Below are positions 16 to 15,584 of a stretch of DNA of 15,584 nucleotides, piece by piece. The stretch is from Candidatus Latescibacterota bacterium (lineage in GTDB: Bacteria > Latescibacterota > Latescibacteria > Latescibacterales > Latescibacteraceae): contig JAFGMP010000236.1 in NCBI GenBank assembly GCA_016927495.1, positions 1 to 15,584 of the forward strand, given 5' to 3'. The notes under the pieces are model-generated. The model was not told the DNA's origin. It ran no database searches and was given only the letters and a program-made list of their open reading frames with translations. The translations under genes were made by a program, and so were the position numbers. Position 1 is the stretch's first letter; each line of letters opens with the position of its first letter.

Positions 16-1998
16 TCAATAAGGCGCCCACGATGTAATATGTCCGATAAGCGGTGTGTACGGCGGCTGTCCTGCAGGAGTAGAAAGATCGGGATCGTAC
101 ATATAAACGCGAACAGGAGGATTGTATCCTGTTTTTTGCACCCACGCAAGTTCATCGGTCTGTATTCCCGAATTATCGAGATTCGCACACATTACAGCGC
201 CATCAAGATGAACTACAGAGCCGAATTTTGTCAGCGTTTTTCCCGACCAGTTCTCCACAAGATCATCACAGTTTGCCCATGGATCACCACTATTATTGGG
301 GTCATTGTATCCTGCCGCGGTTTTCGGGGATTCGGGATTATATCTGACTATACCGCTCCAGTCATATCTGTTGTTATCATCACGGTCAGCCCAGTTATAT
401 TCATCAACAGTAGGCGCACCATCAACAAGTGCCGCATTAATTCTTGTATTAACTGCGCTTCTGTTTTTGGAATTTGTCGACTGAGCATCGCTGAATATAC
501 CGCTTAAATGATATATTCTGTGTACAGTCATAATTGCGCAGCCTTTTTTCTCTATTGTGTTAAAATCTCCCAATGTATATATGGTCCTGCAACTTGAAAC
601 CATTAATTTGTTCTGAAGTTTTGCTGTGTTTTTTAGCCTAACGGGCACATCACAGTATATTAAACCGTTTGAAGGCCAGTCGTTTGTTGTTGCTTCCTTA
701 AATAAAATACCGTCTGTAGCGCCACCGGTTACAGACTCACTGACTATGATATTAGTATTACCTCCGGCGTTAACTGCACTAACAACGGTATATGCATTAT
801 TCAAAGCGGTTCTTGTAAAACAACTGACGACATAAACGGCATCGCCGGCGTTATATTCGGTTTCATGATTGCCTAAAATGGTAATTCTTTTCGTTGCACC
901 GTCAGACGCAACTACGGAATAATCGGCTCCGCCGGAAATCAGATCGGCAAAATCAATCTCCCAGGCTGTTATCCACCGCTGTTCATTCCAGTTCCAGAAT
1001 GTCACTTGACTGCACCATGGTTCTGTTGAATGTGTTGTATTATTGATGTGGAGTTGAGCTTCCTGGTCATAATACTCACCGGGGTTAAGGTTTTGAACGG
1101 GAGGAGGCGACTTATATGGCACTTTGTCACGTACTACACCACCCCAGAGAGCTTTCGCACCAACTGTTTTGTCAGTCCAGTTTGCATTGTATGAGTCGAA
1201 TGCCAGACCCTCTGAACCACGAGGACTGCCGGGTTCCATTTCAATCCAGATACCGGATCCTTCACTATTTTTCGTTATTTCACATGCACCACTTGTATCA
1301 GGTCGGCCCCAGGCGTCTCTGCTTCGTATCATATTTCCGGTTGCTGTTACGGAAGATGAATTTATTCGTAAGGTTGCACCGGTTGGCCTTATATACATAT
1401 GCCCGTTTGCATGTACTTTACCCCTTATTTCCTGCGAGGCTCCACGGGTGAATTCACCAAGGTCCCTTGAGGCAAAATAAGAAAACTGGAACATTGTCTC
1501 AATCTCACCCTGAGCCCTTGTACGCTTTCGAATTTTGTCATACCATCCCTCAGACTCAATGATAAAAGAGAAGTTTGAGGTATAGTATACTCTGAACTTA
1601 AAACCGTGACGTTTGTCGGTGTCCCACATGGGATCATAGCCTTTCGATGAATCCCATTCCCATACATAACTACCGTCACTATCGATATAATAATTCGCAA
1701 GAGATGTTGGCAGAAGATCTTCACCGGTTTCCGATTGTGCCATATCGAGCGTATGAGTTGTTTGAAGAAAACCTGTATTGATGAATTCACGATATGCAAC
1801 ACGAGCACCTATTTCAGCCATATTCCGAGCCTGCATATTTATTTCGTAGTTACGGGATAGTGCAGCGTTTGTCGACGTACTTGTTATCACCCCGACACCT
1901 ACAACTGTTAGAGTCATGAGGATTACAAGCACGAGAACAAGGGCAAATCCCCGTTCTGAATTGCTACATCGATTAATCATAGATCTAATACTAACCAT
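16..1998 (-). CDS. Large PilX-like type IV pilus minor pilin / pilus-associated protein (660 aa)
   Basis: The ATG at 1998 lies 13 nt downstream of the PilW-like stop. The N-terminus NSERGFALVLVLVILMTLTVVGVGV has the PilX_N-like hydrophobic helix that follows a short polar leader. The ~500-aa C-terminal region is rich in W, Y, N, D and G and was not recognised. Gene order fimT-pilV-pilW-pilX matches canonical minor-pilin operons. Confidence 0.6.
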   Translation of the reverse strand: MVSIRSMINRCSNSERGFALVLVLVILMTLTVVGVGVITSTSTNAALSRNYEINMQARNMAEIGARVAYREFINTGFLQTTHTLDMAQSETGEDLLPTSLANYYIDSDGSYVWEWDSSKGYDPMWDTDKRHGFKFRVYYTSNFSFIIESEGWYDKIRKRTRAQGEIETMFQFSYFASRDLGEFTRGASQEIRGKVHANGHMYIRPTGATLRINSSSVTATGNMIRSRDAWGRPDTSGACEITKNSEGSGIWIEMEPGSPRGSEGLAFDSYNANWTDKTVGAKALWGGVVRDKVPYKSPPPVQNLNPGEYYDQEAQLHINNTTHSTEPWCSQVTFWNWNEQRWITAWEIDFADLISGGADYSVVASDGATKRITILGNHETEYNAGDAVYVVSCFTRTALNNAYTVVSAVNAGGNTNIIVSESVTGGATDGILFKEATTNDWPSNGLIYCDVPVRLKNTAKLQNKLMVSSCRTIYTLGDFNTIEKKGCAIMTVHRIYHLSGIFSDAQSTNSKNRSAVNTRINAALVDGAPTVDEYNWADRDDNNRYDWSGIVRYNPESPKTAAGYNDPNNSGDPWANCDDLVENWSGKTLTKFGSVVHLDGAVMCANLDNSGIQTDELAWVQKTGYNPPVRVYMYDPDLSTPAGQPPYTPLIGHITSWAPY

Positions 1999-2011
1999 AT
2001 TCTCACACCTT

Positions 2012-2890
2012 TTAGATGATAACTATGTTCTGAGGAATTACCAGGCCTTTAATTTCGACACGTCTGTAACCATCACCATATACAGGATCAATATAATTCG
2101 GTATCGGTTCGGATGTTTTTGAACGCAATGTCATTTCAATTTCCCTTATATCATAAATCTCATCAGGTTCCGGCTCTGTAATCCATGAGCCATCTTTCAT
2201 ATTGAACCGAATCTGAAAGTCTTCAACATCCCCAAGAAGAATTTGCGGATCATATGCCTGATGTTTTAGCATTAAATTTATTCTGCCTTCATCGTCCGTA
2301 TCGACATAAAAAGTAAGATGAGTAACAACCTGTATCGAACTGCCTGTATTATAAACATGGTCAAGTTGATTGTCATCATTCCAGGGCAGCGATGCATCAT
2401 GCCACAGTGTGGTTGAGTTTTTATTTGTAACTATAAATATTTCCGTAAATGTGCCATCAGAGATTACACACAGATCTCCTGTTTCAATTTCATCCGTGGA
2501 ATTACATTTAATCTGATCACCTTCACTTGCCATATTCTGGGTTGTTGTCACCGTGACTGCTTTGAAACTACCCATGATTGTTAATGAATCAGGGCTATCA
2601 TCAACACCATCGACAGCTTCTATCACAGCCCATCCGCTTGTAGGTGGTACTCCATTACCTGCCAATCTCACATGGTCATAAAGGAAATTCATAGCCCACC
2701 GTAATTCCTGCTGCATTTCGGATTCCTGACGTTTAACACTAAAACGTGTAACCTGATCAGCCATGAACTGAAACATTAACACTGCGAGTATTGAACCTAT
2801 GGTCATAGCGACCAGAAGTTCCGCAATAGTCATACCCTTTTCATTGTTACGAAAACGAGGTCTATTTATACCAATCAATTTTTTTTGCAT
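2012..2890 (-). CDS. PilW-like type IV pilus minor pilin (prepilin-type N-terminal cleavage/methylation domain)
   Basis: Leader MQKKLIGINRPRFRNNEKG, then MTIAELLVAMTIGSILAVL (G-1, E+5), then QVTRFSVKRQESEMQQELRWAMNFLYDHVRLAG, which is typical of PilW. The ORF track starts at an in-frame GTG at 2902. I prefer the ATG at 2890, which has a GGGGAG about 11 nt upstream. Confidence 0.6.
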   Translation of the reverse strand: MQKKLIGINRPRFRNNEKGMTIAELLVAMTIGSILAVLMFQFMADQVTRFSVKRQESEMQQELRWAMNFLYDHVRLAGNGVPPTSGWAVIEAVDGVDDSPDSLTIMGSFKAVTVTTTQNMASEGDQIKCNSTDEIETGDLCVISDGTFTEIFIVTNKNSTTLWHDASLPWNDDNQLDHVYNTGSSIQVVTHLTFYVDTDDEGRINLMLKHQAYDPQILLGDVEDFQIRFNMKDGSWITEPEPDEIYDIREIEMTLRSKTSEPIPNYIDPVYGDGYRRVEIKGLVIPQNIVII

Positions 2891-2929
2891 TACGGCATTC
2901 ACTCCCCAAAATTTAACCGAATAATGAAG

Positions 2930-3340
2930 TTAGTTGCTCTGATCGATACATACCGATGTAAGCGTAACTGTCTCAAGATTTCCAGTTGTACTCTCCCATT
3001 GAACTTTGGATGTAATTAACTTAGACCTTGGTATGGGATTCAGGTCATCTATTGTCCAAAACTGGTAGAAAACCCCGTTTGAATCACCGGTCGCGTTTAC
3101 CGGGTTCAGAGGATTCTCATAAGAGTTTTCTGCAAGATTTGGGTTCTCGTAGCCATCCGTCAAAAGTTGTTCAATTTTATTTTGAGCAAGCAAGACAGCC
3201 TGTGTGTGACGCTGGCTGTGAAAATTCCTTTGTACAATTTCCGATATTATCGAACCGACAATTCCAATTCCCACAACAAGAATCACCGAGGCCATTATCA
3301 CTTCGATCAGAGTGAAACCTTTTTCAGAGTTGTATTTCAT
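2930..3340 (-). CDS. PilV-like type IV pilus minor pilin
   Basis: N-terminus MKYNSEKGFTLIEVIMASVILVVGIGIV is a class III prepilin signal (G|FTLIE). TQAVLLAQNKIEQL follows, as in PilV. The start overlaps the upstream gene's stop as ATGA (3337-3340). Confidence 0.65.
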   Translation of the reverse strand: MKYNSEKGFTLIEVIMASVILVVGIGIVGSIISEIVQRNFHSQRHTQAVLLAQNKIEQLLTDGYENPNLAENSYENPLNPVNATGDSNGVFYQFWTIDDLNPIPRSKLITSKVQWESTTGNLETVTLTSVCIDQSN

Positions 3341-3822
3341 AAGTTTCTCTCCCGTATCCTGCCGGTAAGATAGTTTAATTCAACTTTTGTCGAATCTATC
3401 GAACTGTTAGTAATTATTATAGTCCCAGTCATTTCACCTCCTGTTAAACAGGATTTTTCAAGTTGTCCGAATTCATTAAATATGACAAGCCAATCCTCAA
3501 AATTATTCTCACTAATGGAAATTCCTGATTCAAGACTGTAACCGGCACCCCTGATTTCATTTGCACCTTCAGGATCACGAATGATATAAAAGTTACCGCT
3601 TCCGCCCTCATCGAATTGAACACCGTACGGTTCCGCTTCATTTACAGCCTTCATTCTGGCAGTGTAAAGTGATGCGGTCACCGTTGCAGTACTTGTGCGA
3701 AGTTTATCCTTTTTGAATACAAGATTAAGTGATGGTACCGCCAAACCTGCCATAATACCAATAACAACCATGACAATCATTAATTCAACGAAAGAAAAAC
3801 CGGATTCATTTGGCTTCATCAT
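3337..3822 (-). CDS. FimT/FimU/GspH-like minor pilin (pseudopilin)
   Basis: N-terminus MMKPNESGFSFVELMIVMVVIGIMAGLAVPSL has the prepilin cleavage/methylation motif (G|FSFVE). The following region, LNLVFKKDKLRTSTATVTASLYTARMKAV, resembles the GspH/FimT family. It is the first gene of the pilin operon and has a GAGAG upstream. Confidence 0.65.
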   Translation of the reverse strand: MMKPNESGFSFVELMIVMVVIGIMAGLAVPSLNLVFKKDKLRTSTATVTASLYTARMKAVNEAEPYGVQFDEGGSGNFYIIRDPEGANEIRGAGYSLESGISISENNFEDWLVIFNEFGQLEKSCLTGGEMTGTIIITNSSIDSTKVELNYLTGRIRERNL

Positions 3823-4190: not shown

Positions 4191-5102
4191 ATGATCGCAG
4201 CAATCGGTATATCGGTACTCGATACGATAATGGTGATGGACGGTTTTAAATCCGCTGAGGGATCGTATCACTGTGAGAAACTTATCATTGAAGGCGGCGG
4301 TATGGCTGCAACCGCCCTTTGTACGGCTTCAAAGCTTGGTTCGCAAACACGTCTGTTTTCAAGGATTGGAAACGATGTATTCGGCAAACGGCTGCTGGAA
4401 GAGCTGAGAGATTTCGGGGTTGACATTTCGGGGACAATAACGCTAAAAAACAGAAATACTACCGCTTCTGTTGTGTTTGTCGATTTAAATACCGGAGAAA
4501 AACAATTTTATTCGGAATGGGATAAATCCGCATACATAGATTCCTGCTCACTTAATGTCAATTTGCTCGAAGGTGTTAAAATCATGCTTGTGGACGGACA
4601 TTGGACAGAAGGAGCATATGAGGGTCTTGTATGGGCCCGCGCACAGGAAATTCCTGTAGTTGCCGATTTTAAAAGAAAGTATAATGGCATCGAAAAATTA
4701 TTTCCCTTCATCGATTATTTCATCATACCGATGTTTTTTGCCGAAGAAATAACCGGAGAAAAAAAAACGGATCGAATGCTTCATAAACTTACCGAGCTGC
4801 AGCCGGGCATCCCGGTTATAACTTGCGGAGTTCAGGGAGGAGCATATATCGTCGAAAATGATATCAAACGTTACAAGGCATTTCCTATAAAAGCAGTTGA
4901 TTCAACAGGAGCGGGTGACGCTTTCCATGGGGCATTTTGCCATTTCATTTCCCATGGTGTAGAACTGTCCCGCTGTCTGGAATTATCTTCTGCTGTTGGC
5001 GCACTCAACTGTCGTGCCCACGGTGGTAGATCTGCTCTTCCGTCACGAGAAGAACTAAAGGTTTTTCTTAAAAATCATAATGTGGATCCGGAATTTCCAT
5101 AA
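4191..5102 (+). CDS. pfkB/ribokinase-family carbohydrate kinase
   Basis: An N-terminal beta-strand plus GG motif (IGISVLDTIMV...EGGGMAATALCTASKLG) and a C-terminal anion-hole/catalytic motif DSTGAGDAFHGAF (DTxGAGD) are diagnostic of the ribokinase/pfkB superfamily. Length is 303 aa. Confidence 0.8.
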   Translation: MIAAIGISVLDTIMVMDGFKSAEGSYHCEKLIIEGGGMAATALCTASKLGSQTRLFSRIGNDVFGKRLLEELRDFGVDISGTITLKNRNTTASVVFVDLNTGEKQFYSEWDKSAYIDSCSLNVNLLEGVKIMLVDGHWTEGAYEGLVWARAQEIPVVADFKRKYNGIEKLFPFIDYFIIPMFFAEEITGEKKTDRMLHKLTELQPGIPVITCGVQGGAYIVENDIKRYKAFPIKAVDSTGAGDAFHGAFCHFISHGVELSRCLELSSAVGALNCRAHGGRSALPSREELKVFLKNHNVDPEFP

Positions 5103-5228
5103 GTTCCTAAAATTCAAAATGCTATTTCCAAATGATCTTTTCCGAACATGTACTGATTCTGAGTATTAAACAACCTCAAATATAAAAAGAGTATTTACAC
5201 AAGTTTTCAAAATTCATTATCTCACTTA

Positions 5229-5257
5229 TTGACTTTCTACAGGTTAATTCGTATCTT
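5229..5257 (+). promoter_or_regulatory. Candidate sigma70-type promoter of the small basic ORF: TTGACT(5229-5234)-17 nt-TATCTT(5252-5257)
   Basis: Hexamers with 17-nt spacing were read directly. They sit about 55 nt upstream of ATG 5311, and GGAGG lies at 5302-5306. Confidence 0.3.
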
Positions 5258-5310
5258 TGATAAAAGCTTATAAACAAATAAAAATGATTACAAGTAGTGT
5301 CGGAGGTTAT

Positions 5311-5436
5311 ATGGGTAACAGAAAATTGAGAAAAGCTGAAATACGGCAAAGGCGTCAACGACGCGAAAAACGTCAGAAACAGAAAAAAAATGAATTGATT
5401 ATGAAAGCACAGGAAAAAAAAGATAAAAAGGATTGA
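5311..5436 (+). CDS. Small (41 aa) extremely basic Arg/Lys-rich protein, MGNRKLRKAEIRQRRQRREKRQKQKKNELIMKAQEKKDKKD
   Basis: This ORF is not in the six-frame track because it is under 60 aa. GGAGG lies 4 nt upstream of the ATG, a candidate promoter is upstream, and a strong hairpin+T8 terminator lies 76 nt downstream. Composition is about 50% K/R. It may be a ribosome- or nucleic-acid-associated small protein, but it could also be non-coding. Confidence 0.4.
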   Translation: MGNRKLRKAEIRQRRQRREKRQKQKKNELIMKAQEKKDKKD

Positions 5437-5511
5437 AACTTTTTTCCTGTTCAGGCATATTAAATACAGGTCGACAAAAAATTGCGCTGTCGGCCGTAGA
5501 ACCTCCCTTTC

Positions 5512-5545
5512 GAAACCCCGGTTGTATTTGACCGGGGTTTTTTTT
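5512..5545. terminator. Rho-independent terminator hairpin (9-bp GC-rich stem AACCCCGGT/ACCGGGGTT, 8-nt loop) followed by T8 on the plus strand; A-run on the other side allows weaker bidirectional function for the convergent BMC operon
   Basis: Stem 5514-5522 pairs with 5531-5539, loop is tgtatttg, and the T-run is 5538-5545. The site lies between the convergent small ORF (plus) and the aldehyde dehydrogenase gene (minus, ends 5630). On the minus strand the stem is followed only by TTTC. Confidence 0.6.
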
Positions 5546-5629
5546 GCTCAATAAAAAATGCGCACCGTTCTTTTTCAAAAACACGTACGCATATTTATTA
5601 TTTGCTTCGATATTCTTTCTCAGTCAATC

Positions 5630-7114
5630 TCAGACAAACCGCAGACTCCCTGCTATCGCCAGACGTCTGATTTTACAGAAATTAATCGGTGATGTGACGC
5701 CCTCACCGGTAGGAGTTGCGATTGTGAAAGCCATATACGCTTCGCCATCATCAGGACCGTCACCCTGATTACTGTAGCCGTTTGCCACCACAATTGTTGT
5801 ATTCATTGCTTTGGCAAAAGTTGTAATACGATCCATGTCTTTCGAATGAATGAGCGCCGTATGTCGATACCCATGTTCTGCTTCCAGACAACACTGTAAA
5901 CCGTCATCGAAATCTTTAACCCTGACAATAGGAAGAAGCGGCATCATCTGTTCTTCTTTTACTAACAGATTATCCTTGTCCGTTTCACCGAAAAGGAGAC
6001 GTGTACCCTCGGGAATGTTTAACTTCACAAGATCGGCAAGATAACTGGTGCTTCTGCCCACCATCTCACGATTAAGTACATGACCGCCTTTTTCGTTTGA
6101 AATAAAAGCTTTTTTGGTCAACAGGTCCATATGAATACTTTCGATTTTTACAGCGCCGGCTTTTTCCATCGCCATCATAAACCTGTCAAAAACGGATTCT
6201 ACAACAAAGACCTCTTTTTCAGCGATACAGAGGAGATTATTATCAAACGAAGCGCCTCTGATAATATCCCGTGCGGCTTTTTCAATATTGGCTGTTTCAT
6301 CGACCAGAACCGGCGGATTTCCGGGACCTGCGGCTATCACCTTTTTATCGGTGGCCATAGCAGCTTTAACAACACCCGGTCCTCCGGTTATCGACAATAA
6401 CGCGACATCAGGATGGTTGAACATGCTATTCGCCGTCTCGATTGTCGGATTCTCCACACAGGTAATAAGGTTTTCCGGAAAACCTCCCGCAACTATAGCT
6501 TTATGGAATATCTGCAGAGCATAGGCGCTTATTTTTTTTGCTCCGGGGTGAGGATTGAAAATTACAGTGTTACCCCCGGCAAGCATAATGATCGCGTTGT
6601 TGACCAACGTGGGAACCGGATGCGTGGACGGAGTTATTGCTCCTATTATCCCGAATGGCGCAAATTCCTCGATCGTGACGCCGGTTTCTCCCGACCATGA
6701 CCGTGAAACAAGATTCTCGGTACCGGGTGAATTTTTTGCGCAGTTTCTGTGTTTTAAAATCTTGTCTCTGATGTTCCCCATGCCGGTTTCTTCGAAAGTC
6801 ATCTTGCTGAATTCTTCTGCATAATCCAAAGTGACCCTGCGCAGGATACCGATGAGACGTTCACGTTCTCTGACACCAAATTTATTAAATTCAAAAAATG
6901 CTCTTTTGGATGCTGCAATTGCATCTTCCATACGGTCGAATACACCATCTTTGCCGCGTAAACCGGCCGATGATGCAACTGGTCTCATGGATTGTGGCGA
7001 TAAAGATGGTGTTACTGCACCCGATCCGGCTTTGGGTAGCGCCGTTCCGGACGTTTTTGCCACCGATGCAACAACAGATTCAACTATGCTTCTGATTTGT
7101 TGTTCGTCAATCAT
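5630..7114 (-). CDS. CoA-acylating aldehyde dehydrogenase (EutE/PduP family) with N-terminal encapsulation peptide
   Basis: The ALDH fold starts at GVFDRMEDAIAASKRAF. The catalytic Cys lies in FDNNLLCIAEKE. A ~55-aa N-terminal extension (amphipathic helix IDEQQIRSIVESVVASV plus an S/P/A/G-rich linker) is typical of BMC-targeted AldDH. AAGAGG lies 8 nt upstream of the ATG. Confidence 0.9.
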   Translation of the reverse strand: MIDEQQIRSIVESVVASVAKTSGTALPKAGSGAVTPSLSPQSMRPVASSAGLRGKDGVFDRMEDAIAASKRAFFEFNKFGVRERERLIGILRRVTLDYAEEFSKMTFEETGMGNIRDKILKHRNCAKNSPGTENLVSRSWSGETGVTIEEFAPFGIIGAITPSTHPVPTLVNNAIIMLAGGNTVIFNPHPGAKKISAYALQIFHKAIVAGGFPENLITCVENPTIETANSMFNHPDVALLSITGGPGVVKAAMATDKKVIAAGPGNPPVLVDETANIEKAARDIIRGASFDNNLLCIAEKEVFVVESVFDRFMMAMEKAGAVKIESIHMDLLTKKAFISNEKGGHVLNREMVGRSTSYLADLVKLNIPEGTRLLFGETDKDNLLVKEEQMMPLLPIVRVKDFDDGLQCCLEAEHGYRHTALIHSKDMDRITTFAKAMNTTIVVANGYSNQGDGPDDGEAYMAFTIATPTGEGVTSPINFCKIRRLAIAGSLRFV

Positions 7115-7140: not shown

Positions 7141-7413
7141 TTACACCATCTGTTCCATGTCTTCATGCGGGCTTGCAATAACCTGTGTGGCAACAACTTC
7201 TCCTACACGGGCTGCGGCTTCGGTTCCGGCCTCAACTGCCGCTTTTACTGCAGCGACATCACCCCTGACCATAACCGCAATATATCCGCTTCCCGTTTTT
7301 TTGTAGCCCTGAAGACTCACCGAAGCGGCTTTGAGCATTGCATCAGCGCCTTCCACTGCGGCTATGAAACCTCTTGTCTCTATAAATCCTAATGCTCTTC
7401 CTGTAACTGCCAT
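7141..7413 (-). CDS. BMC-H hexameric shell protein (Pfam00936, PduA/EutM-like)
   Basis: MAVTGRALGFIETRGFIAAVEGADAMLKAASVSL...GDVAAVKAAVEAG is a canonical single BMC domain. AGGAGG lies 5 nt upstream. Confidence 0.9.
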   Translation of the reverse strand: MAVTGRALGFIETRGFIAAVEGADAMLKAASVSLQGYKKTGSGYIAVMVRGDVAAVKAAVEAGTEAAARVGEVVATQVIASPHEDMEQMV

Positions 7414-7438: not shown

Positions 7439-8218
7439 CTATTGATTGTTGAGTTCCTTCATGATTTTTTCCGTTATTTCCGTGACAATATCTTCGTACT
7501 CCGATTTTGTGCTTAGTTCACAGCTTTCAGTCCCCGTGCATGTACCGCAATTCATGCATGCGCTGCCGCCGATTTTTATACCGAACTGATCACGAATCTC
7601 TTCGAGTTTCTTTACATTTTGCGTGCTGATCTGTTTCATTCCGCCAAGCTGATGAGCTGCCAGAGATATTATGGCAAAATGTTCCACACTCTCCATCTTA
7701 TAATAAGCCTCCATTACGTCTTTACCCAAAGTCATTGCTCCATGATTAGCAAGAAGAATGGCGTCATGACATAGTACCAGATCTTTTATAGAATCGGATA
7801 ATTCCGTTGTGGATGGAGTCCCATATTGGGCCAGCGGAATAGAACCCAGAGAAATTATTATCTCAGGTAATGTTTTAAAATCCAACGGGATATTGGCTAC
7901 CGCATAACCCGTGCAAACCGGCGGATGGGCATGAACAACAGAGCCGATATCATCACGCTGACGATACGCCTCGATATGAATTTTACTTTCGGATGAAGGT
8001 TTCATATACCCGCTCCGAACATTACCGTCCATATCGATCTTCACAAGCATATCAGGTGACATAAAACCTTTCGATACACCGGTTGGCGTGGTTATTATAT
8101 TCGTATCATCGAGTTTCATGCTGATATTACCGTCATTCGAGGCAACCCAACCTTTTAACCAGACACGTCTGCCAACCTCACATATCTGTTCCCGTATTTC
8201 TTTTTCTCGATTATTCAT
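7439..8218 (-). CDS. Class II (AraD/FucA-type, metal-dependent) aldolase with C-terminal Cys cluster and C-terminal encapsulation peptide
   Basis: FucA-like motifs are present: NDGNIS, KPSSES (the catalytic Glu position), HAHPP and ANHG (metal His ligands). The C-terminal ~45 aa read GGSACMNCGTCTGTESCELSTKSEYEDIVTEITEKIMKELNNQ, a CxxCxxCx5C cluster followed by an amphipathic helix. Confidence 0.85.
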   Translation of the reverse strand: MNNREKEIREQICEVGRRVWLKGWVASNDGNISMKLDDTNIITTPTGVSKGFMSPDMLVKIDMDGNVRSGYMKPSSESKIHIEAYRQRDDIGSVVHAHPPVCTGYAVANIPLDFKTLPEIIISLGSIPLAQYGTPSTTELSDSIKDLVLCHDAILLANHGAMTLGKDVMEAYYKMESVEHFAIISLAAHQLGGMKQISTQNVKKLEEIRDQFGIKIGGSACMNCGTCTGTESCELSTKSEYEDIVTEITEKIMKELNNQ

Positions 8219-8291: not shown

Positions 8292-9479
8292 TTACCGAGT
8301 ATCGCTAACTACTTTTACAGTCTCACGGGCAACAATAATTTCTTCATTCGTATCAAGGACAAGCGCTGCAATCTTCGATCCTTCAGCATCGATACGTTCG
8401 CTGTTAGCCTCATTCGCGCTTTTGTCAAGTTTGAATCCCAGAAATTCCAGTGAAGTGAGGATCTCCGACCGCAGAGCACTGTCTTTCTGACCGGTTCCTC
8501 CGGTAAAACAAACAGCATCTACACCGCCCATGAATAAAATATATGCACCCATATAGAACTTGATATCATAAATAAACTTGTCACGGGCAAGCTGCGCTTG
8601 TTTGCTCCCCTTTCTGATGGCTTCAATTACATCCCTCATATCTCCTGACGTTCCGGAAAGACCCTTGAGTCCACCGTTCGATCCCAGTTCTCTATACGCA
8701 TCTTCAAGACTTATACCTTTTTTCTTCATAATGTACGGAACAATAAACGAATCCATATCACCGACACGTTTGGATTGAATAACACCCGTCTGTGTGCTGA
8801 AACCCATAGATGTATCTATAGCAACTCCGTCTTTAAACGCACATACCGAGGATGATCCCCCGAGGTGACACGCAATAACTTTATGATTTTTCAGATCGAG
8901 TTTCAGAATACGAACAGTTTCTCCGGTAACAAATCTCAATGATGCGCCATGATAGCCGTATTTACGGACACCATATTTTTCAAACCACTCAACTGGAGTG
9001 CCATAAACCTGGGCATATTCCGGCCTGTTAATATGAAATCCCGGTTCGAATACACCCACCAGCGGTTTTTCAGGTAACAGATCTTTAAACATCCTTATCG
9101 CTTCAAGGTATGGAGGATTATGAGCCGGCGCGATGTCGCTGTATTCATCCATTGCCGCAATAACTTTTTTTGTCAACAGTACCGAACCGTTTTGCTCTCC
9201 TGCCTGCACGGTTTTAAATCCTACCGCATCGATTTCTGACAAATCGTTTATAATTTCCGATGTCAGAAATTCGAGCCCCCGCCTGACCGCTTCCTTCTGA
9301 TTAAGTACCGGCTTTTCTTCATCGATGATAATGTCTCCCGAACCACGGTAATAGGTGCCATGCGCATTATCCGATCCTACACGTTCGATATGGACATGTG
9401 CGATAATGCTTTCAGTCTCCATATCGATGAACTGGAATTTGAATGAAGTCGATCCTATATTACAAACTATAACTTTCAT
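8292..9479 (-). CDS. ackA: Acetate/propionate kinase (AckA family)
   Basis: N-terminus MKVIVCNIGSTSFKFQF (the ASKHA fold beta1 / phosphate-1 motif). Length is 395 aa. Internal motifs HLGGSSSVCAF and FTGGTG are typical of acetate kinases. Confidence 0.9.
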   Translation of the reverse strand: MKVIVCNIGSTSFKFQFIDMETESIIAHVHIERVGSDNAHGTYYRGSGDIIIDEEKPVLNQKEAVRRGLEFLTSEIINDLSEIDAVGFKTVQAGEQNGSVLLTKKVIAAMDEYSDIAPAHNPPYLEAIRMFKDLLPEKPLVGVFEPGFHINRPEYAQVYGTPVEWFEKYGVRKYGYHGASLRFVTGETVRILKLDLKNHKVIACHLGGSSSVCAFKDGVAIDTSMGFSTQTGVIQSKRVGDMDSFIVPYIMKKKGISLEDAYRELGSNGGLKGLSGTSGDMRDVIEAIRKGSKQAQLARDKFIYDIKFYMGAYILFMGGVDAVCFTGGTGQKDSALRSEILTSLEFLGFKLDKSANEANSERIDAEGSKIAALVLDTNEEIIVARETVKVVSDTR

Positions 9480-9553: not shown

Positions 9554-9820
9554 TCACATTGCCACATCATCAATAATAGCCAGAATATTAGCGTCGGAAC
9601 CGGTCATATCAGGGTGAAATGCCATTGCCGATTCCGGACCACCTTCATACAGGACAATCTGGCCTTCTCCGCATCCTATATAATCAAAAGTGATTATCAG
9701 GTTACCTGGTTTTTTTATATCACGGATATCTATTTCTTCCATTACCCTGAGCTTTTTGCCCGCAAGCGCAGGAAGCGTTTTGTTCAATACCAAATTACCG
9801 CGTACTTTGCCGGTTTCCAT
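9554..9820 (-). CDS. BMC-P pentameric vertex protein (EutN/PduN/CcmL family), paralog 3
   Basis: METGKVRGNLVLNKTLPALAGKKLRVM...IGCGEGQIVLYEGG matches the BMC-P fold pattern. Length is 88 aa. Confidence 0.8.
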   Translation of the reverse strand: METGKVRGNLVLNKTLPALAGKKLRVMEEIDIRDIKKPGNLIITFDYIGCGEGQIVLYEGGPESAMAFHPDMTGSDANILAIIDDVAM

Positions 9821-9886: not shown

Positions 9887-10621
9887 CTATATGCCGGTGA
9901 AACCTGAAATTATTGCTTCGGGATTCGATATCGATCCAAGCACAATCACATTAGCGCCTATATCGATCCTTGCGGCACGGGCATCATACGTGTCTCTGCA
10001 GTGGACGGCACGAACAGCGCTGTTTCTGTTTGCATGAATCGGAGCCTCCATTCCCGTGTTTTCAAGACAGACTCCGAAATGAGCGCCGCCTGAAACTACC
10101 ATATCCGCAAGCTTTTTTACATTTGCTTCATACGACCCGCCGGTAATTTCTTTTATCGTCAAATGTTTTGCTGCAAGAATATTCTTCAAAATTGAACCAT
10201 CACCCTTAAAATCCGGAGCAATAACGAGCGCAACAGAAATGGTACCCTGTATTGAAGAAACATTCCCAGATTTATTACCTGCTGCACCATCAATACGGTT
10301 GATAGTTATTTTCTTTTCTTTGGCAAAATCCAGCGCCAATGGCGTTATAACAGCCTTTTTTGTTATGGTGACGGTTTGCCCTTTTACTGCTTCGAGATCT
10401 TTCTGAGTAATAACCTGTTTCCCCGACATATCAGCGTTACCCGCTGCAGGTGCTTCAACAGGCAGTGTCGGACGAATCGATACCTGAGCCGGAACAGGTG
10501 ATTGTTGTGCCGGAGCTTGACTGCCGCTTGTTTCGGCAGACGAACTTACCGGAATACCCCGCTGGTTAAGAACTCTTTTTACTTCTGTAATAATCGCTTC
10601 GACAAGTTCATCGTGATTCAT
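9887..10621 (-). CDS. Encapsulation-peptide-tagged RpiB/LacAB-family sugar-phosphate isomerase-like protein (EP + linker + small unassigned module + RpiB-like domain)
   Basis: The N-terminus MNHDELVEAIITEVKRVL is an amphipathic helix, followed by a ~45-aa S/A/P/Q-rich linker. The middle module reads VITQKDLEAVKGQTVTITKKAVITPLALDFAKEKKITI. The C-terminal ~115 aa align to the RpiB core: GVCLENTGMEAPIHANRNSAVRAVHCRDTYDARAARIDIGANVIVLG versus RpiB [47 protein letters not shown]. Glu sits at the catalytic Cys/Glu position. The N-terminal GSDHAG motif has diverged to APDFKG. Confidence 0.6.
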   Translation of the reverse strand: MNHDELVEAIITEVKRVLNQRGIPVSSSAETSGSQAPAQQSPVPAQVSIRPTLPVEAPAAGNADMSGKQVITQKDLEAVKGQTVTITKKAVITPLALDFAKEKKITINRIDGAAGNKSGNVSSIQGTISVALVIAPDFKGDGSILKNILAAKHLTIKEITGGSYEANVKKLADMVVSGGAHFGVCLENTGMEAPIHANRNSAVRAVHCRDTYDARAARIDIGANVIVLGSISNPEAIISGFTGI

Positions 10622-10645: not shown

Positions 10646-10903
10646 TTAACGCTCAACTATATCATCTATAATTCCGCATAACCATGCTCTTTGAGGAACA
10701 ATGGGATCATTATGCATTTCCTGCGATCCTATACCATCCCAATTGAGAATAACTCTGTCACCTTTACCTGATGCGGTAAAATCAACCACAACCTGCGGCC
10801 TGCCCTGGGGCTGTCCCTTTGCATCAAGTACCTGAACAATCATTAGCTTTTTCCCATTAAGGCAGGGATGTTTGATTGTAGAAGTAACACTTCCAAGTAC
10901 CAT
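10646..10903 (-). CDS. BMC-P pentameric vertex protein (EutN/PduN/CcmL family), paralog 2
   Basis: MVLGSVTSTIKHPCLNGKKLMIVQVLD...ASGKGDRVILNWDG matches the BMC-P pattern. The ORF track begins at an in-frame TTG at 10921 (MRLREG-). The ATG at 10903 gives the canonical M-x-x-G-x-V-x-S-T N-terminus. The true start is ambiguous. Confidence 0.75.
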   Translation of the reverse strand: MVLGSVTSTIKHPCLNGKKLMIVQVLDAKGQPQGRPQVVVDFTASGKGDRVILNWDGIGSQEMHNDPIVPQRAWLCGIIDDIVER

Positions 10904-11034
10904 TCCCTCTCTCAACCGCAAACCTCATACTAAAAAATTAAACCATAAAATTCGTTACCTGTTTCATTTCGAAAACAACTTGTAATGTATCTCTTCTGTA
11001 ATAACTTGTATTCATCCTGTCTGCAATCAAATAT

Positions 11035-11583
11035 TTATACGAGATGCGGTATCAGTTCCGGATTCACCGACGGAATAACCACCGAAGCAATGAGCACTCC
11101 TCTGTCTTTAACTCCTTCAAGCGCAGCATCCATTGCCGACTGGACATTCTGGACAGAACCGGTAACGATCACATATGATTTTCCGGCAAGTCCCTTACCG
11201 AGCCTGAGTTCGATTATTTCCACATCGGAGGTTTTCACCATCGTATCGGCGCCCTCGATTGTTGCCGTCATCGTCATCGTTTCAAAAACACCGATTGAAG
11301 CGCCGATATTAACAATATCAGGACTGTAAAACGCCGAAAGAACTTTGTCATCGATACGAGGCAAAATGAGCGAGTCCAGAAAATTGAAATCGGCAATTCC
11401 CTTTGCAAGATCAATCGCTTCCCGGACAGCTCCGACATCTCCTGTAAATAATATCTGATAACGCCCGGGACAGTTTGGAGCGGAAAGCAAAATATCAATC
11501 GCCGTATTTTTGGAAATAAGATCGGCGGCCTGTATACCTTTTCCGACACTTATATATTCGAGAAAACCAATACATTTACTCAT
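11035..11583 (-). CDS. BMC-T tandem-domain shell protein, PduT-like with conserved pore cysteine (putative [4Fe-4S] site)
   Basis: Two BMC domains (IGFLEYISVGKGIQAADLISKNTAIDIL and IGVFETMTMTATIEGADTMVKTSDVEIIEL) sit in 182 aa. LLSAPNCPGRYQILFTGDVGAVREAI aligns with Salmonella PduT [27 protein letters not shown], including Cys38. The start overlaps the PduS stop as ATGA. Confidence 0.85.
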   Translation of the reverse strand: MSKCIGFLEYISVGKGIQAADLISKNTAIDILLSAPNCPGRYQILFTGDVGAVREAIDLAKGIADFNFLDSLILPRIDDKVLSAFYSPDIVNIGASIGVFETMTMTATIEGADTMVKTSDVEIIELRLGKGLAGKSYVIVTGSVQNVQSAMDAALEGVKDRGVLIASVVIPSVNPELIPHLV

Positions 11584-12956
11584 GAACCGGCACCCCTGAT
11601 TACAATATATTCATTCGTAACTTCTTCTACATGGCCATGTATTGATGCATGTACTCGCGCCCCCATTCCATTTTCAGGAATTTCACCGATCAGATCACCG
11701 GTTTTTACACTCTCCCCCTGTTTTACCACCGGTTTTGCCGGAGCACCTATATGCTGAAGAAGCGGGATACGCACCTTTCCGGGTATGAACGAACCAAGTG
11801 GTTCGAATTCTGTGTGTCCGAGATACCGTTCGAGGCCAAGTTTACGGGCATATGTTAAAGCCGGAAGTTTTCGATAATTAAACATTGCACCATCATACTG
11901 AGGCATCTTTGAAAAATCATACTTCAATCCCGACCGTTTTATAGCATCGCGAACCATAGCATATACTTTGTTGGGAGCCAGGCCGAAAATGCATGCGTAT
12001 TGTTCACAAACACCACACTGGCAGCACAAAATTGATTCGAATACCATCTGTTTTGTGAATTCATCGAGGTCATGCGCTTCAATTTTCCTTATAATCTCAT
12101 CGACAAACCATGAGTATGACATCATTTTTGCCGGTGAAATGGCATGGCCTATAGCGTTTCTCGGGCAAAGTATAGTACATTCCTGACAGGTGCAGCACAT
12201 TTTTGCCCGCTGTTTCGTAATACGGACAGGTTCTTTTTTTAATCGAACCATCGTGTGGTCTTTCGGCAATACTATTACACCCCCAAATCGCTTATCGATA
12301 ACATCGTCCGTATCACCGATCGGCCCCATTATAGGTCCGCCCAAAATGATCTCGTAATCAGTTACAGTTACTCCGCCCGCAAATGCTATAAGGTCTTTTA
12401 CAGGCGTTCCTATCGGAACCTCAACGGTAACCGGACGGGCTACTTCCCCACCGATGGTAACATTTCGTGAAGTAACGACCTTACCGTCAAGCGCATCGGA
12501 AATCTGCTTGAATGTAGCCACATTGCTAACCGTCACACCAATCATAAAAGGCAAACCGCCCTGTGGCACCGTCTTTCCGGTCACATCACGGATCAGGACA
12601 AGCTCATCGCCTGCGGGATAAGAATTTTCGAGAATACCGATTTCGAATTCCGGTTTACCTGATATTACCTGAGAAACAGCATCGATGGCAGCGGTATTTT
12701 TATTTTTGATACCGATGATTCCCTTTCGGGCGCCAACCTGTTCCATCGCCGCTTCCATACCGCGTATGAAACTGCCGGGATTTTTTTCCATGAGATGTTT
12801 ATCGGCTTCGAGAATAGGTTCACATTCGGCGCCGTTAGCAATAACGGTGTCGACAGCATTTCCCAATTTAACATGAGTGGGAAATCCCGCACCGCCAGCC
12901 CCTACTATTCCGGCATCACGAACAATTGAAACAATATCGACGGCAGTCCGGCTCAC
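11580..12956 (-). CDS. PduS-like (RnfC/NuoF-like) NAD(H)- and FMN-binding iron-sulfur oxidoreductase
   Basis: N-terminus MSRTAVDIVSIVRDAGIVGAGGAGFPTHVKL closely matches PduS (GVVGAGGAGFPAHVKL). Two ferredoxin-like Cys clusters are present: CCTCQECTILCP and CCQCGVCEQYAC. The gene starts at GTG and overlaps the upstream BMC-P stop as GTGA. Confidence 0.85.
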   Translation of the reverse strand: MSRTAVDIVSIVRDAGIVGAGGAGFPTHVKLGNAVDTVIANGAECEPILEADKHLMEKNPGSFIRGMEAAMEQVGARKGIIGIKNKNTAAIDAVSQVISGKPEFEIGILENSYPAGDELVLIRDVTGKTVPQGGLPFMIGVTVSNVATFKQISDALDGKVVTSRNVTIGGEVARPVTVEVPIGTPVKDLIAFAGGVTVTDYEIILGGPIMGPIGDTDDVIDKRFGGVIVLPKDHTMVRLKKEPVRITKQRAKMCCTCQECTILCPRNAIGHAISPAKMMSYSWFVDEIIRKIEAHDLDEFTKQMVFESILCCQCGVCEQYACIFGLAPNKVYAMVRDAIKRSGLKYDFSKMPQYDGAMFNYRKLPALTYARKLGLERYLGHTEFEPLGSFIPGKVRIPLLQHIGAPAKPVVKQGESVKTGDLIGEIPENGMGARVHASIHGHVEEVTNEYIVIRGAGS

Positions 12957-13273
12957 TCTTTCTCACCTTTCCGATACACAAAATTGGTGTCAACCGACAC
13001 TGAATCGACAATCCCGATTATCAGACCATCCGTAGGTATACTCGCCGTTGTATCTGTCATACGGGCGGAAGATCCCTGTACGACAAGCACCAATTCACCC
13101 CGTCCGGCGCCAATCGGATCGTTTACTATCAGTGTGGTTCCGGTCGGCAGAATTTTACTGCCTTTAGGATCATTTGTAATATTCTGAACCTCGATAAGTA
13201 GAAACTTCTGCCCGATCAGTCGGTCAATCTTCACTGACGACACTATTTCACCGATAACTTTACCGACTACCAC
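12953..13273 (-). CDS. BMC-P pentameric vertex protein (EutN/PduN/CcmL family), paralog 1
   Basis: VVGKVIGEIVSS...GSSARM...DGLIIGIVDSVSVDTNFVYRK aligns with CcmL/EutN, including the C-terminal DTVSRDNYLLYSK-like segment. GTG start, with GAGGT 8 nt upstream. Confidence 0.85.
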   Translation of the reverse strand: MVVGKVIGEIVSSVKIDRLIGQKFLLIEVQNITNDPKGSKILPTGTTLIVNDPIGAGRGELVLVVQGSSARMTDTTASIPTDGLIIGIVDSVSVDTNFVYRKGEKE

Positions 13274-13430: not shown

Positions 13431-13793
13431 TTACACTCCGGGGCTTTTCTTCTGATCACCCGCAGGTGAAGCTTTTGTCGTTTTCGGTTTGGGAGCATTT
13501 GCCTTTTCTGCCGGTTTTTCTGCCTCCACGATGCCGATAAAAGCTTCCATTTCCTTATGAGGGCTCGCTATAACCTGAGCAGCAACGACCTTGCCAATAG
13601 CCGCGGCAGAACCTGCGCCTGCATCGACAGCAGCTTTTACTGCCGCCACATCTCCGGTCAGAATGATCATAACAAGTCCACTGCCTGCACGCATCTGAGT
13701 CAGAAGGGAAACATTGGCCGCTTTCAGAGCCGAATCGGCAGCCTCCACCGCGGCAACAAATCCCTGTGTCTCAATGAAACCCAAAGCTTGCAT
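13431..13793 (-). CDS. BMC-H shell protein with ~35-aa Lys/Pro/Ala-rich C-terminal extension
   Basis: The BMC domain is MQALGFIETQGFVAAVEAADSALKAANVSL...GDVAAVKAAVDAG. The tail reads EAEKPAEKANAPKPKTTKASPAGDQKKSPGV. AGGAG lies 6 nt upstream. Confidence 0.85.
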   Translation of the reverse strand: MQALGFIETQGFVAAVEAADSALKAANVSLLTQMRAGSGLVMIILTGDVAAVKAAVDAGAGSAAAIGKVVAAQVIASPHKEMEAFIGIVEAEKPAEKANAPKPKTTKASPAGDQKKSPGV

Positions 13794-13908: not shown

Positions 13909-14175
13909 TTATTTGAAAAGTCCATCCAGTTCTTCATGAGGACGCGGAATAATGTGCGATGAAATGAACTCTCCTACATTTTTCGCCACTTCAGTGCCGG
14001 ATTCCACGGCTGCTTTGACCGAACCTACGTCGCCGGTGATAACTGTGGTTACAAAACCACCACCGATGCCAACCTGTTTGAGCAGTTCAACGCTGGCGCT
14101 CTTCAACATCGCATCGGTTGCAATTGCGAGTCCTGTGAATCCTCTTGTTTCAAGAAGTCCTATTGCTTTTCTCAT
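13909..14175 (-). CDS. BMC-H hexameric shell protein
   Basis: MRKAIGLLETRGFTGLAIATDAMLKSASVELL...GDVGSVKAAVESG is a canonical BMC domain. GGAGG lies 10 nt upstream. Confidence 0.9.
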   Translation of the reverse strand: MRKAIGLLETRGFTGLAIATDAMLKSASVELLKQVGIGGGFVTTVITGDVGSVKAAVESGTEVAKNVGEFISSHIIPRPHEELDGLFK

Positions 14176-14216: not shown

Positions 14217-14945
14217 TTAATCTTTTATTATCTCGACATCTTTGCCGCAGCCAATATCCGCGACATTTCCCTCGTCCGTATCAAGATGTACTTCGAGCCG
14301 TACATTATCGGATACCCGCACCACCATATTTTCAAACGTTACCGCATTAGGCCCTCCAACCCTGAGCTTAACTTTATCTCCATTTTTCAGCCCGAAATAT
14401 GCTGCCTCTTTTGGATTCATGTGAACATGCCTCATGGCACGGATACAACCCTCGTCAAGTTCGACAACACCTTTTGGGCCAATTATTGTTATAGGCGCAG
14501 AACCCTTTATATCACCGGAAATTCTTAATGGTGCATCGATACCTAGAAAAATAGCATCAGTTTTGGCCAGTTCAACCTGAGTTCTATCTCTCAAAGGCCC
14601 GAGAATCCTTACTTTTTCAAGAAGCCTCGTTTTGGGTCCGATTAGCGCCACTGTCTGTTTCTCAGCATGAGTGCCGGGTTGATATAATTCCCGTAAATGA
14701 TCGAGTTCAGCACCGGGACCGAATAGTTTTTCAAGATGTTCTTTGCAGAGATGTACATGACGAACCGAAACTCCAACCGGTATTCTTTTCGGATTAATCG
14801 AATCATATACAACATTTTCCGTTTCTTTTTTTTCCGGTTCTTTTGATGGTACCGTTAGGTTAATTCGTTCAAATACTTCCCGAACAATCCGATTGAGTAT
14901 ATCCTGGTCAATCGAAGGTGTCCGGCTTACATTTGTGTTATTCAT
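14217..14945 (-). CDS. pduL: PduL-type phosphotransacylase (Pfam06130) with N-terminal encapsulation peptide
   Basis: Two PduL repeats with His-rich metal sites are present (IPVGVSVRHVHL and IRAMRHVHMN). The N-terminal amphipathic helix DQDILNRIVREVFERI plus a linker precedes the catalytic domain, as in encapsulated PduL. Confidence 0.85.
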   Translation of the reverse strand: MNNTNVSRTPSIDQDILNRIVREVFERINLTVPSKEPEKKETENVVYDSINPKRIPVGVSVRHVHLCKEHLEKLFGPGAELDHLRELYQPGTHAEKQTVALIGPKTRLLEKVRILGPLRDRTQVELAKTDAIFLGIDAPLRISGDIKGSAPITIIGPKGVVELDEGCIRAMRHVHMNPKEAAYFGLKNGDKVKLRVGGPNAVTFENMVVRVSDNVRLEVHLDTDEGNVADIGCGKDVEIIKD

Positions 14946-15255: not shown

Positions 15256-15584
15256 ATGAGACATGTGCGTAAAAAAATTATTAAAATTACTTTCAGCAGG
15301 GTTTTATTTAACATATTCATACTTTTTTTTACATTTTTTTTCCTGGCTGAAAAGTCAGTCGCTCAACAGGATACAATCAGCATATTTGAACTGACCGGCA
15401 ACAATACAGATATATTCTCAAAAGAATGGAATCATATTCTGCCGGAAAATCAAAAGGCATATACAAACTATACCATCGAAAAAAATAATAATGAATTATA
15501 TCTTAAACTACGTTCCGGCGGTACCGGTTCACTGCTTGAAAAAAAAGTCGACAACATCAATGTCGCAAAATTTCCCATAATGGA
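15256..15584 (+). CDS. Partial CDS (5' end), secreted/exported protein with N-terminal signal peptide; continues beyond window
   Basis: ATG at 15256. The open frame runs to the window end with no stop. MRHVRKKIIKITFSRVLFNIFILFFTFFFLAEKSVAQQ has a Lys-rich n-region, a hydrophobic core and an AxA-like cleavage site. It is absent from the ORF track because it is incomplete. Confidence 0.45.
   Translation, partial: MRHVRKKIIKITFSRVLFNIFILFFTFFFLAEKSVAQQDTISIFELTGNNTDIFSKEWNHILPENQKAYTNYTIEKNNNELYLKLRSGGTGSLLEKKVDNINVAKFPIM

Follow-up and report, generated by a model that had tools for sequence, protein, structure and literature searches.

A PduS/PduT-type gene pair as a probable trans-shell electron conduit in a Latescibacterota metabolosome operon that encodes no alcohol dehydrogenase

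The PduS homologs of bacterial microcompartment (BMC) loci were renamed MNdh, for metabolosome NADH dehydrogenase, by Sutter et al. (PNAS 2024; PMC11626177), in whose model MNdh and the shell protein paired with it, BMC-T^SE, recycle NAD+ by passing electrons across the shell. MNdh occurs in 2,172 BMC loci, always with an aldehyde dehydrogenase, its gene adjoins that of a Cys-pore BMC-T in 97% of cases, and in 361 loci the MNdh/BMC-T^SE pair is found without an alcohol dehydrogenase (ADH) (PMC11626177). Here we describe a pair of this type in a stretch of 15,584 nucleotides from a Candidatus Latescibacterota bacterium (contig JAFGMP010000236.1; hereafter the window), in which a PduS-type protein of 458 aa with a GTG start (11580-12956, minus strand; identified by Pfam, RnfC alignment and an AlphaFold2 (AF2) model) and a PduT-type tandem-domain shell protein of 182 aa (11035-11583, minus strand; identified by two Pfam BMC domains, PDB alignment and an AF2 model) are encoded side by side in a metabolosome operon. 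The genes present, the order of the domains, the conservation of motifs, the folds, the synteny and the absence of ADH and B12 functions from the window and from the scanned flanks of relatives were computed for this pair. Taken together, they indicate that the two proteins are probably the MNdh and BMC-T^SE of an ‘SPU-like’ class II aldolase metabolosome, in which they would recycle lumenal NAD+ by exporting electrons through the shell.

The biochemistry of such pairs comes from C. botulinum. In vitro, the C. botulinum proteins contain flavin mononucleotide (FMN) and Fe-S and oxidize NADH with a kcat of 20 s^-1; in electron paramagnetic resonance, NADH reduces an Fe-S cluster whose g-values match those of the BMC-T^SE cluster, and square-wave voltammetry resolves five redox waves, for which three Fe-S clusters and FMN are held to account (PMC11626177). 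An earlier reading of the window made from its letters alone (the sequence-only reading) had described this kind of electron export as proposed but not demonstrated, a statement that these in vitro data have overtaken. The window pair and the C. botulinum GRM1 pair are alike in their four permuted domains, FMN/NADH loop, eight Cys, adjacent Cys-pore BMC protein, acylating aldehyde dehydrogenase and proposed role, whereas GRM1 is a choline glycyl-radical locus with a CP(G/S)K pore motif and the window holds an ADH-less class II aldolase metabolosome with CPGR. The MNdh model has since been adopted for annotation in later work.

The locus type has its own history. Axen, Erbilgin and Kerfeld (2014; PMC4207490) described a Latescibacteria locus with PduS as ‘SPU-like’, and the window is another instance of it, from the same phylum and with the same aldehyde dehydrogenase, PduL, PduS, RpiB-like protein, class II aldolase and acetate kinase, this enzyme set being joined by BMC-H and BMC-T as well as BMC-P genes in one operon. 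The role suggested for PduS in 2014 was aldehyde reduction or that of an evolutionary remnant, not NAD+ recycling (PMC4207490). Both the locus type (2014) and the trans-shell mechanism of NAD+ recycling (2024) are already published. In the supplement of the 2021 BMC catalogue, Latescibacteria loci appear as HO, MIC7, FRAG2 or ‘fragmented’ only, and none of the SPU1-7 descriptions that we looked at fits the window.

Two further metabolosomes invite comparison. The Pdu systems of Salmonella enterica and Citrobacter freundii contain the founding member of the family, PduS, and a PduT whose fold matches that of the window protein (TM 0.86 for 3N79 and 3PAC) with Cys38 at the same position, the identity of the window PduT to the Pdu PduT structures being 31-35%; in Pdu these are accompanied by a B12-dependent diol dehydratase, by an adenosyltransferase and by PduQ, an ADH, whereas the window operon is without all three. 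The PVM microcompartment of Planctomycetes and Verrucomicrobia, which acts on fucose and rhamnose, resembles the window in its class II aldolase signature enzyme, aldehyde dehydrogenase, PduL-type phosphotransacylase, acetate kinase and extra BMC-P (PMC4207490). NAD+ recycling in PVM is assigned to an enzyme of the lactate/malate-dehydrogenase family (PMC4207490), whereas none is encoded in the window operon, and PVM PduS/T genes lie mostly in satellite loci (18/20; PMC11626177), whereas the window pair lies in the core operon.

The PduS-type protein has the Pfam domains Complex1_51K (residues 12-153, E 8e-46), SLBB (166-211), a 4Fe-4S dicluster (Fer4_17, 254-325) and RnfC_N (391-450), and this order of PF01512, PF10531, 4Fe-4S dicluster and PF13375 is that of MNdh. 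Its closest solved relatives in both fold and sequence are RnfC subunits (9ERI_C, 7ZC6_C and 8AHX_C; E 1e-50, TM ∼0.6), which have the same FMN/NADH site and two [4Fe-4S] clusters. The HMMER alignment with RnfC 7ZC6_C falls into two pieces, query 381-447 matching RnfC 18-84 and query 7-280 matching RnfC 122-391, and the barrel-sandwich domain that is N-terminal in RnfC is C-terminal in the window protein; the two-piece alignment with a C-terminal barrel-sandwich domain thus implies a circular permutation relative to RnfC, as has been described for PduS-type proteins (PMC11626177). The AF2 model (pLDDT 92.5, pTM 0.91) has RnfC as its closest PDB fold (TM 0.60-0.63), followed by NuoF-type subunits. 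Identification as RnfC or PrdC was considered and rejected, as the domains are permuted and the partner genes are absent: no rnfABDEG gene is present in the window, and the score against the RnfC model TIGR01945 is 226, under its cut-off of 246. Scores against the NCBIfam models of PrdC, RnfC, RsxC and NuoF all stay below their cut-offs, and no equivalog name can be given.

The cofactor-binding elements of the PduS-type protein were compared across 112 homologs of 41-78% identity. In the glycine-rich FMN/NAD(H) loop, G19-A-G-G-A-G-F-P26 (12879-12902, minus strand, located from the sequence), residues G19, G21, G22, A23, G24 and P26 are invariant in 112/112. The first [4Fe-4S] motif, C254-x2-C257-x2-C260-x3-C264-P (12162-12197, minus strand), keeps its four Cys and the Pro in every homolog (112/112), as the second, C311-x2-C314-x2-C317-x4-C322 (11991-12026, minus strand), keeps its four Cys (112/112). 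From these motifs the Latescibacteria PduS is predicted to carry FMN and Fe-S clusters. All hallmarks that can be read at the level of sequence are present, and by these the PduS-type protein is assigned as a probable MNdh, a PduS-type metabolosome NADH dehydrogenase.

The PduT-type protein contains two BMC domains (PF00936, E 1.5e-36) and aligns over its full length to the BMC-T of D. hafniense (3NWG) and to PduT (3PAC and 3N79), with E values from 2e-36 to 6.5e-30. The AF2 model (pLDDT 89) superposes on 3N79, 3PAC and 3NWG with TM 0.86-0.91, which identifies the single-layer BMC-T^s fold, and the edge residue Lys25, involved in tiling, is invariant in alignment A1. The pore-loop motif C38-P-G-R (11461-11472, minus strand) was located by alignment with the CPGK of PduT, and in the model it forms part of the turn that joins strands 30-37 and 41-48. 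Its Cys38 (N-C-P-G-R) falls under the Cys of CPGK in 3PAC, 3N79 and 3NWG, corresponds to the cluster-binding Cys38 of crystallized PduT, and is the expected ligand of a [4Fe-4S] cluster that would lie on the trimer axis. C38, P39 and G40 are invariant in alignment A1, and Cys38 is kept in 13 orthologs from related loci. Among the 99 homologs that bear the motif, 92 have CPGR, among them all homologs of ≥69% identity, and the more distant ones have CPGK (7/99). The score against NCBIfam eut_PduT is 118, under the cut-off of 250; since no NCBIfam equivalog cut-off is reached by either protein, we describe PduS and PduT of the window as family members and not as orthologs of the enteric proteins. 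The sequence-only reading, which had noted the GAGGAGFP motif and both Cys clusters in the PduS homolog and the cluster Cys in the NCPGR of the PduT homolog, is upheld on each of these residues.

The genomic context agrees with that described for MNdh, with an adjoining Cys-pore BMC-T gene and an aldehyde dehydrogenase in the locus, and the same is found in all related loci. The stop of the upstream BMC-P gene overlaps the PduS start by 4 bp (GTGA), the PduS and PduT genes overlap by 4 bp as well (ATGA), and on the strength of these overlaps we regard the three genes as translationally coupled. The same operon, in the same order, is present in 14 further Latescibacterota-type loci, on contigs that include ones of 1.67 Mb, 898 kb, 93 kb, 54 kb and 51.5 kb. 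In all of these loci the order BMC-P, PduS, PduT is kept and the pair is always adjacent, with PduT 70-96% identical and PduS, where measured, 60-76% identical. The closest relative, L018, has a PduT of 96% and an aldolase of 94% identity and shares the downstream kinase and pilin genes as well.

No ADH, B12-dependent enzyme or corrinoid adenosyltransferase is encoded among the open reading frames of the window, all of which could be assigned in the operon and its neighbours, and an Rfam scan of the window returned no family at all, hence no cobalamin riboswitch. Apart from PduS, the operon encodes no NADH-consuming enzyme. Coupling of the three genes and an operon devoid of B12 enzyme, adenosyltransferase and ADH had all been proposed before, and each is confirmed. 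As the source contig ends at both ends of the window, flanks were surveyed in the relatives, using precomputed Pfam tables and scans of flank open reading frames over ∼4-8 kb either side where annotated. In these scanned flanks of the 14 related loci, L018 included, no Fe-ADH or B12 gene was found, and no ADH is present in the window or in the scanned flanks of 13 of the 14. The exception is L002 (single-cell genome AM-311-I19; 5092-6931), where the genes of the kinase and the class II aldolase are separated by an insertion of 2.2 kb, which encodes an aldolase of the DeoC/LacD family, to which the SPU signature enzyme belongs, and a Zn-dependent MDR protein of the ADH family. Through this insertion the locus type is tied to SPU loci, and the clade is seen to differ in ADH content from locus to locus; the lack of ADH is the rule there but is not absolute. 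Of the finds that would have refuted the sequence-only reading, neither an ADH with an encapsulation peptide nor B12 genes came to light in the flanks surveyed, which favours that reading as far as these flanks go. Elsewhere in the genome an ADH may still be encoded: L002 has its Zn-ADH-family gene in the operon, and Latescibacteria single-cell genomes are reported to contain an NADH-dependent ADH outside it (PMC4454575).

By analogy with the published model, the pair would work as follows. An encapsulated acylating aldehyde dehydrogenase would convert aldehyde to acyl-CoA and NAD+ to NADH in the lumen, and PduL and the acetate-family kinase would carry acyl-CoA through acyl-phosphate to the acid with formation of ATP. 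Seated on the BMC-T^SE trimer from the lumenal side, MNdh would oxidize NADH at FMN. Electrons would then travel one at a time, by way of the two [4Fe-4S] clusters of MNdh, to a further [4Fe-4S] cluster that three Cys38 residues would hold in the trimer pore, and from there they would leave to a cytosolic acceptor. Lumenal NAD+ would in this way be regenerated without diverting aldehyde to alcohol. Export of NADH electrons via PduS and PduT, as the sequence-only reading had suggested, fits every feature tested and is the published MNdh/BMC-T^SE model (PMC11626177); for the window pair itself, the loading with cofactors, the docking, the way in which electrons flow and the role in physiology are inferred, biochemistry being available for a homologous pair. 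If the model is true, the shell separates two redox pools and all of the aldehyde can go to acyl-CoA and ATP, with no half of it lost as alcohol, a point already made in 2024. What the window adds is small, namely a compact and well-conserved ADH-less operon on many independent contigs, which could serve as a natural test case, its locus being without genes for another way of recycling.

Several points weigh against this assignment. The window pair is known from sequence and models, the biochemistry being that of a homologous pair, and published support for MNdh is in vitro and not in vivo or from an intact shell (PMC11626177). The pore motif CPGR departs at its fourth residue from the literal CP(G/S)K that is described as universal next to MNdh (Sutter et al. 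2024, PMC11626177); the Lys-to-Arg change is specific to the clade, and it is treated as conservative, the ligand Cys being unaffected and the Lys a non-ligand. Neither the locus nor the flanks of the relatives include a conserved gene for a ferredoxin, a flavodoxin or another evident acceptor, and the reported cluster potentials of -147 to -349 mV leave a fermenter's electron disposal open (PMC11626177). Moreover, 15.6 kb of the genome are visible and an ADH could be encoded elsewhere, Latescibacteria single-cell genomes have been reported with an NADH-dependent ADH (PMC4454575), and L002 carries its ADH-family gene inside an otherwise identical operon. The last three points equally speak for a classical arrangement in which an ADH or lactaldehyde reductase encoded elsewhere is recruited to the lumen and recycles most of the NAD+ there, leaving the pair a conditional or auxiliary role as in Salmonella Pdu, which has both systems; 1,725 loci carry both (PMC11626177). 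We regard this arrangement as unlikely, if the most serious of the alternatives, since the window and the scanned flanks of 13 of the 14 related loci hold no ADH, the L002 protein has no evident targeting extension of the encapsulation-peptide type once its likely start (MRVAMYY...) is taken, and none of the loci departs from the conserved, coupled PduS/PduT pair.

A different redox purpose for the pair is also conceivable, such as import of reducing power, or the upkeep of a metal or Fe-S centre in the lumen by reduction or repair, for which a tri-Cys motif of the aldolase (C-x2-C-G-x-C, see below) would be a candidate. For GRM loci it was at one time suggested that radical enzymes are supplied with electrons. 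Transfer in one direction or the other was considered by Axen et al. (2014; PMC4207490), and the conserved Cys motif adjoins the encapsulation peptide of the aldolase; against this, the locus has no radical or other reductant-requiring enzyme, the published data favour the direction from NADH to the shell cluster (PMC11626177), and the same Cys motif occurs in Firmicutes homologs, an argument of little weight. Such a purpose is in our estimate improbable. The original Pdu assignment, in which PduS would work for a B12 enzyme as its cob(III)/cob(II)alamin reductase, draws on homology to the PduS of Salmonella and Citrobacter, which is reported to reduce corrinoids in vitro (PMC2982820). We give it next to no credence, for neither the window nor the related loci contain a B12-dependent enzyme, adenosyltransferase, B12-binding domain or cobalamin riboswitch, as a Pdu-type cobalamin reductase system would have the enzyme and the adenosyltransferase in its locus, and according to Sutter et al. 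the fold leaves little room for cobalamin (PMC11626177). The preferred reading, NAD+ recycling by electron export through MNdh and BMC-T^SE, should also be kept apart from a stronger form, in which the pair is the sole route of NAD+ recycling, is tuned by CPGR and is wired to a metal or Fe-S centre in the aldolase tail as well, thus doing more than dumping NADH electrons; this form we consider very improbable.

The lumenal enzymes bear on where NADH would be formed. An amphipathic helix resembling an encapsulation peptide, with a low-complexity linker, is present at the N-terminus of the RpiB-like protein and the C-terminus of the aldolase, as well as N-terminally in PduL and in the aldehyde dehydrogenase, where the helix at aa 2-20 is followed by a Pro/Ser/Gly linker; no such extension is seen in the sequence of the acetate/propionate-family kinase. 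The extension on the aldehyde dehydrogenase would place the NADH-producing step in the lumen.

The aldolase scores below the NCBIfam cut-offs of FucA, OtnC, AraD, MtnB and RhaD and receives no equivalog name. Its residues 221-227 (7538-7558, minus strand) form a C-x2-C-G-x-C motif (‘ACMNCGTCTG’) between the catalytic core and the C-terminal helix. All Latescibacterota orthologs (L002-L017) keep the three Cys unchanged, a fourth Cys being variable, and the motif also occurs in Firmicutes homologs of 48-59% identity from Moorella, Peptococcaceae, Desulfitobacteriaceae and Limnochordia; a Calditrichia homolog is without it. The papers that we found make no mention of this aldolase motif, and the tri-Cys may be a metal or Fe-S site.

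In the RpiB-like protein the N-terminal helix is followed by a long linker of Pro, Ser and Ala, by residues 68-107, a stretch of 40 aa that matches PF15953 PDU_like and TIGR02536, and by a divergent isomerase domain; the isomerase match covers only profile positions 38-106 of 138, and scores lie far below the family cut-offs. Relative to the RpiB of T. maritima, ‘LLCGTG’ is replaced by ‘CLENTG’ (catalytic Cys to Glu) and ‘SHNN’ by ‘IDIG’ (His to Asp), and both replacements are conserved in 11 orthologs. The ribose-phosphate isomerase homologs (RPIs) of SPU loci, in which Asp stands for the catalytic Cys, are reported to have little activity and to bind the aldolase, and the window protein may likewise be non-catalytic.

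The metabolosome operon comprises 13 genes on the minus strand, as defined from open reading frames and Pfam, and runs from 14945 down to 5630. It opens with a PduL-type phosphotransacylase (14217-14945; Pfam PTAC E 9e-69, NCBIfam PRK15070 above cut-off), two Pfam-assigned BMC-H shell proteins (13909-14175, and 13431-13793, the latter of 120 aa with a C-terminal extension) and the BMC-P (EutN/CcmL) vertex protein (12953-13273, Pfam), followed by the PduS-type and PduT-type genes, a BMC-P shell protein (10646-10921, Pfam) and the RpiB/LacAB-like protein of 244 aa (9887-10621; Pfam/NCBIfam comparison and orthologs). Then come a third BMC-P (9554-9820, Pfam), the acetate/propionate-family kinase (8292-9479; Pfam and NCBIfam), the class II aldolase that is the signature enzyme (7439-8218; Pfam Aldolase_II), a third BMC-H (7141-7413, Pfam) and the CoA-acylating aldehyde dehydrogenase of the EutE/PduP family (5630-7114; Pfam Aldedh, NCBIfam PRK15398 583 bits against a cut-off of 403). 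Shell genes other than the PduT-type one thus amount to three BMC-H and three BMC-P. Between the convergent kinase and aldehyde dehydrogenase genes lies a hairpin with a 13-bp stem followed by a T run (5512-5541), likely a two-way terminator that marks the end of the operon. The kinase in question is a PfkB-family sugar kinase (4191-5102, plus strand; ribokinase as best match, below cut-off), beyond which there is a type IV pilin-like cluster of three N_methyl proteins and a 660-aa PilX_N protein (16-3822, minus strand). At the other end the window breaks off within the gene of a DUF3047 protein, whose N-terminus is encoded divergently from the operon (15361-15584, plus strand).

Some relatives differ in what surrounds the operon. 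In L014 (17806-21371) a HydABC-like set directly downstream encodes a 2Fe-2S thioredoxin-like protein, Complex1_51K, NADH_4Fe-4S and an Fe-hydrogenase large subunit, and in L018 (1-59) a Fer4_20/Pyr_redox_2 oxidoreductase is found 6.6 kb upstream; these genes were considered as the electron acceptor and rejected, as neither is conserved. In L016 (7709-15315) the operon stops after the RpiB-like gene and gives way to unrelated housekeeping genes (DUF1385, RF-1, PrmC), which reflects either a rearrangement or an assembly chimera. The DUF3047 fragment of the window, which has a signal-peptide-like start, is 40% identical to a protein of L015 (E 4e-19) and 39% identical to one of L016 (8e-19); a DUF3047 gene occupies the same position in at least 11 related loci. 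The PfkB kinase is found in at least nine related loci, several of which also carry the pilin cluster.

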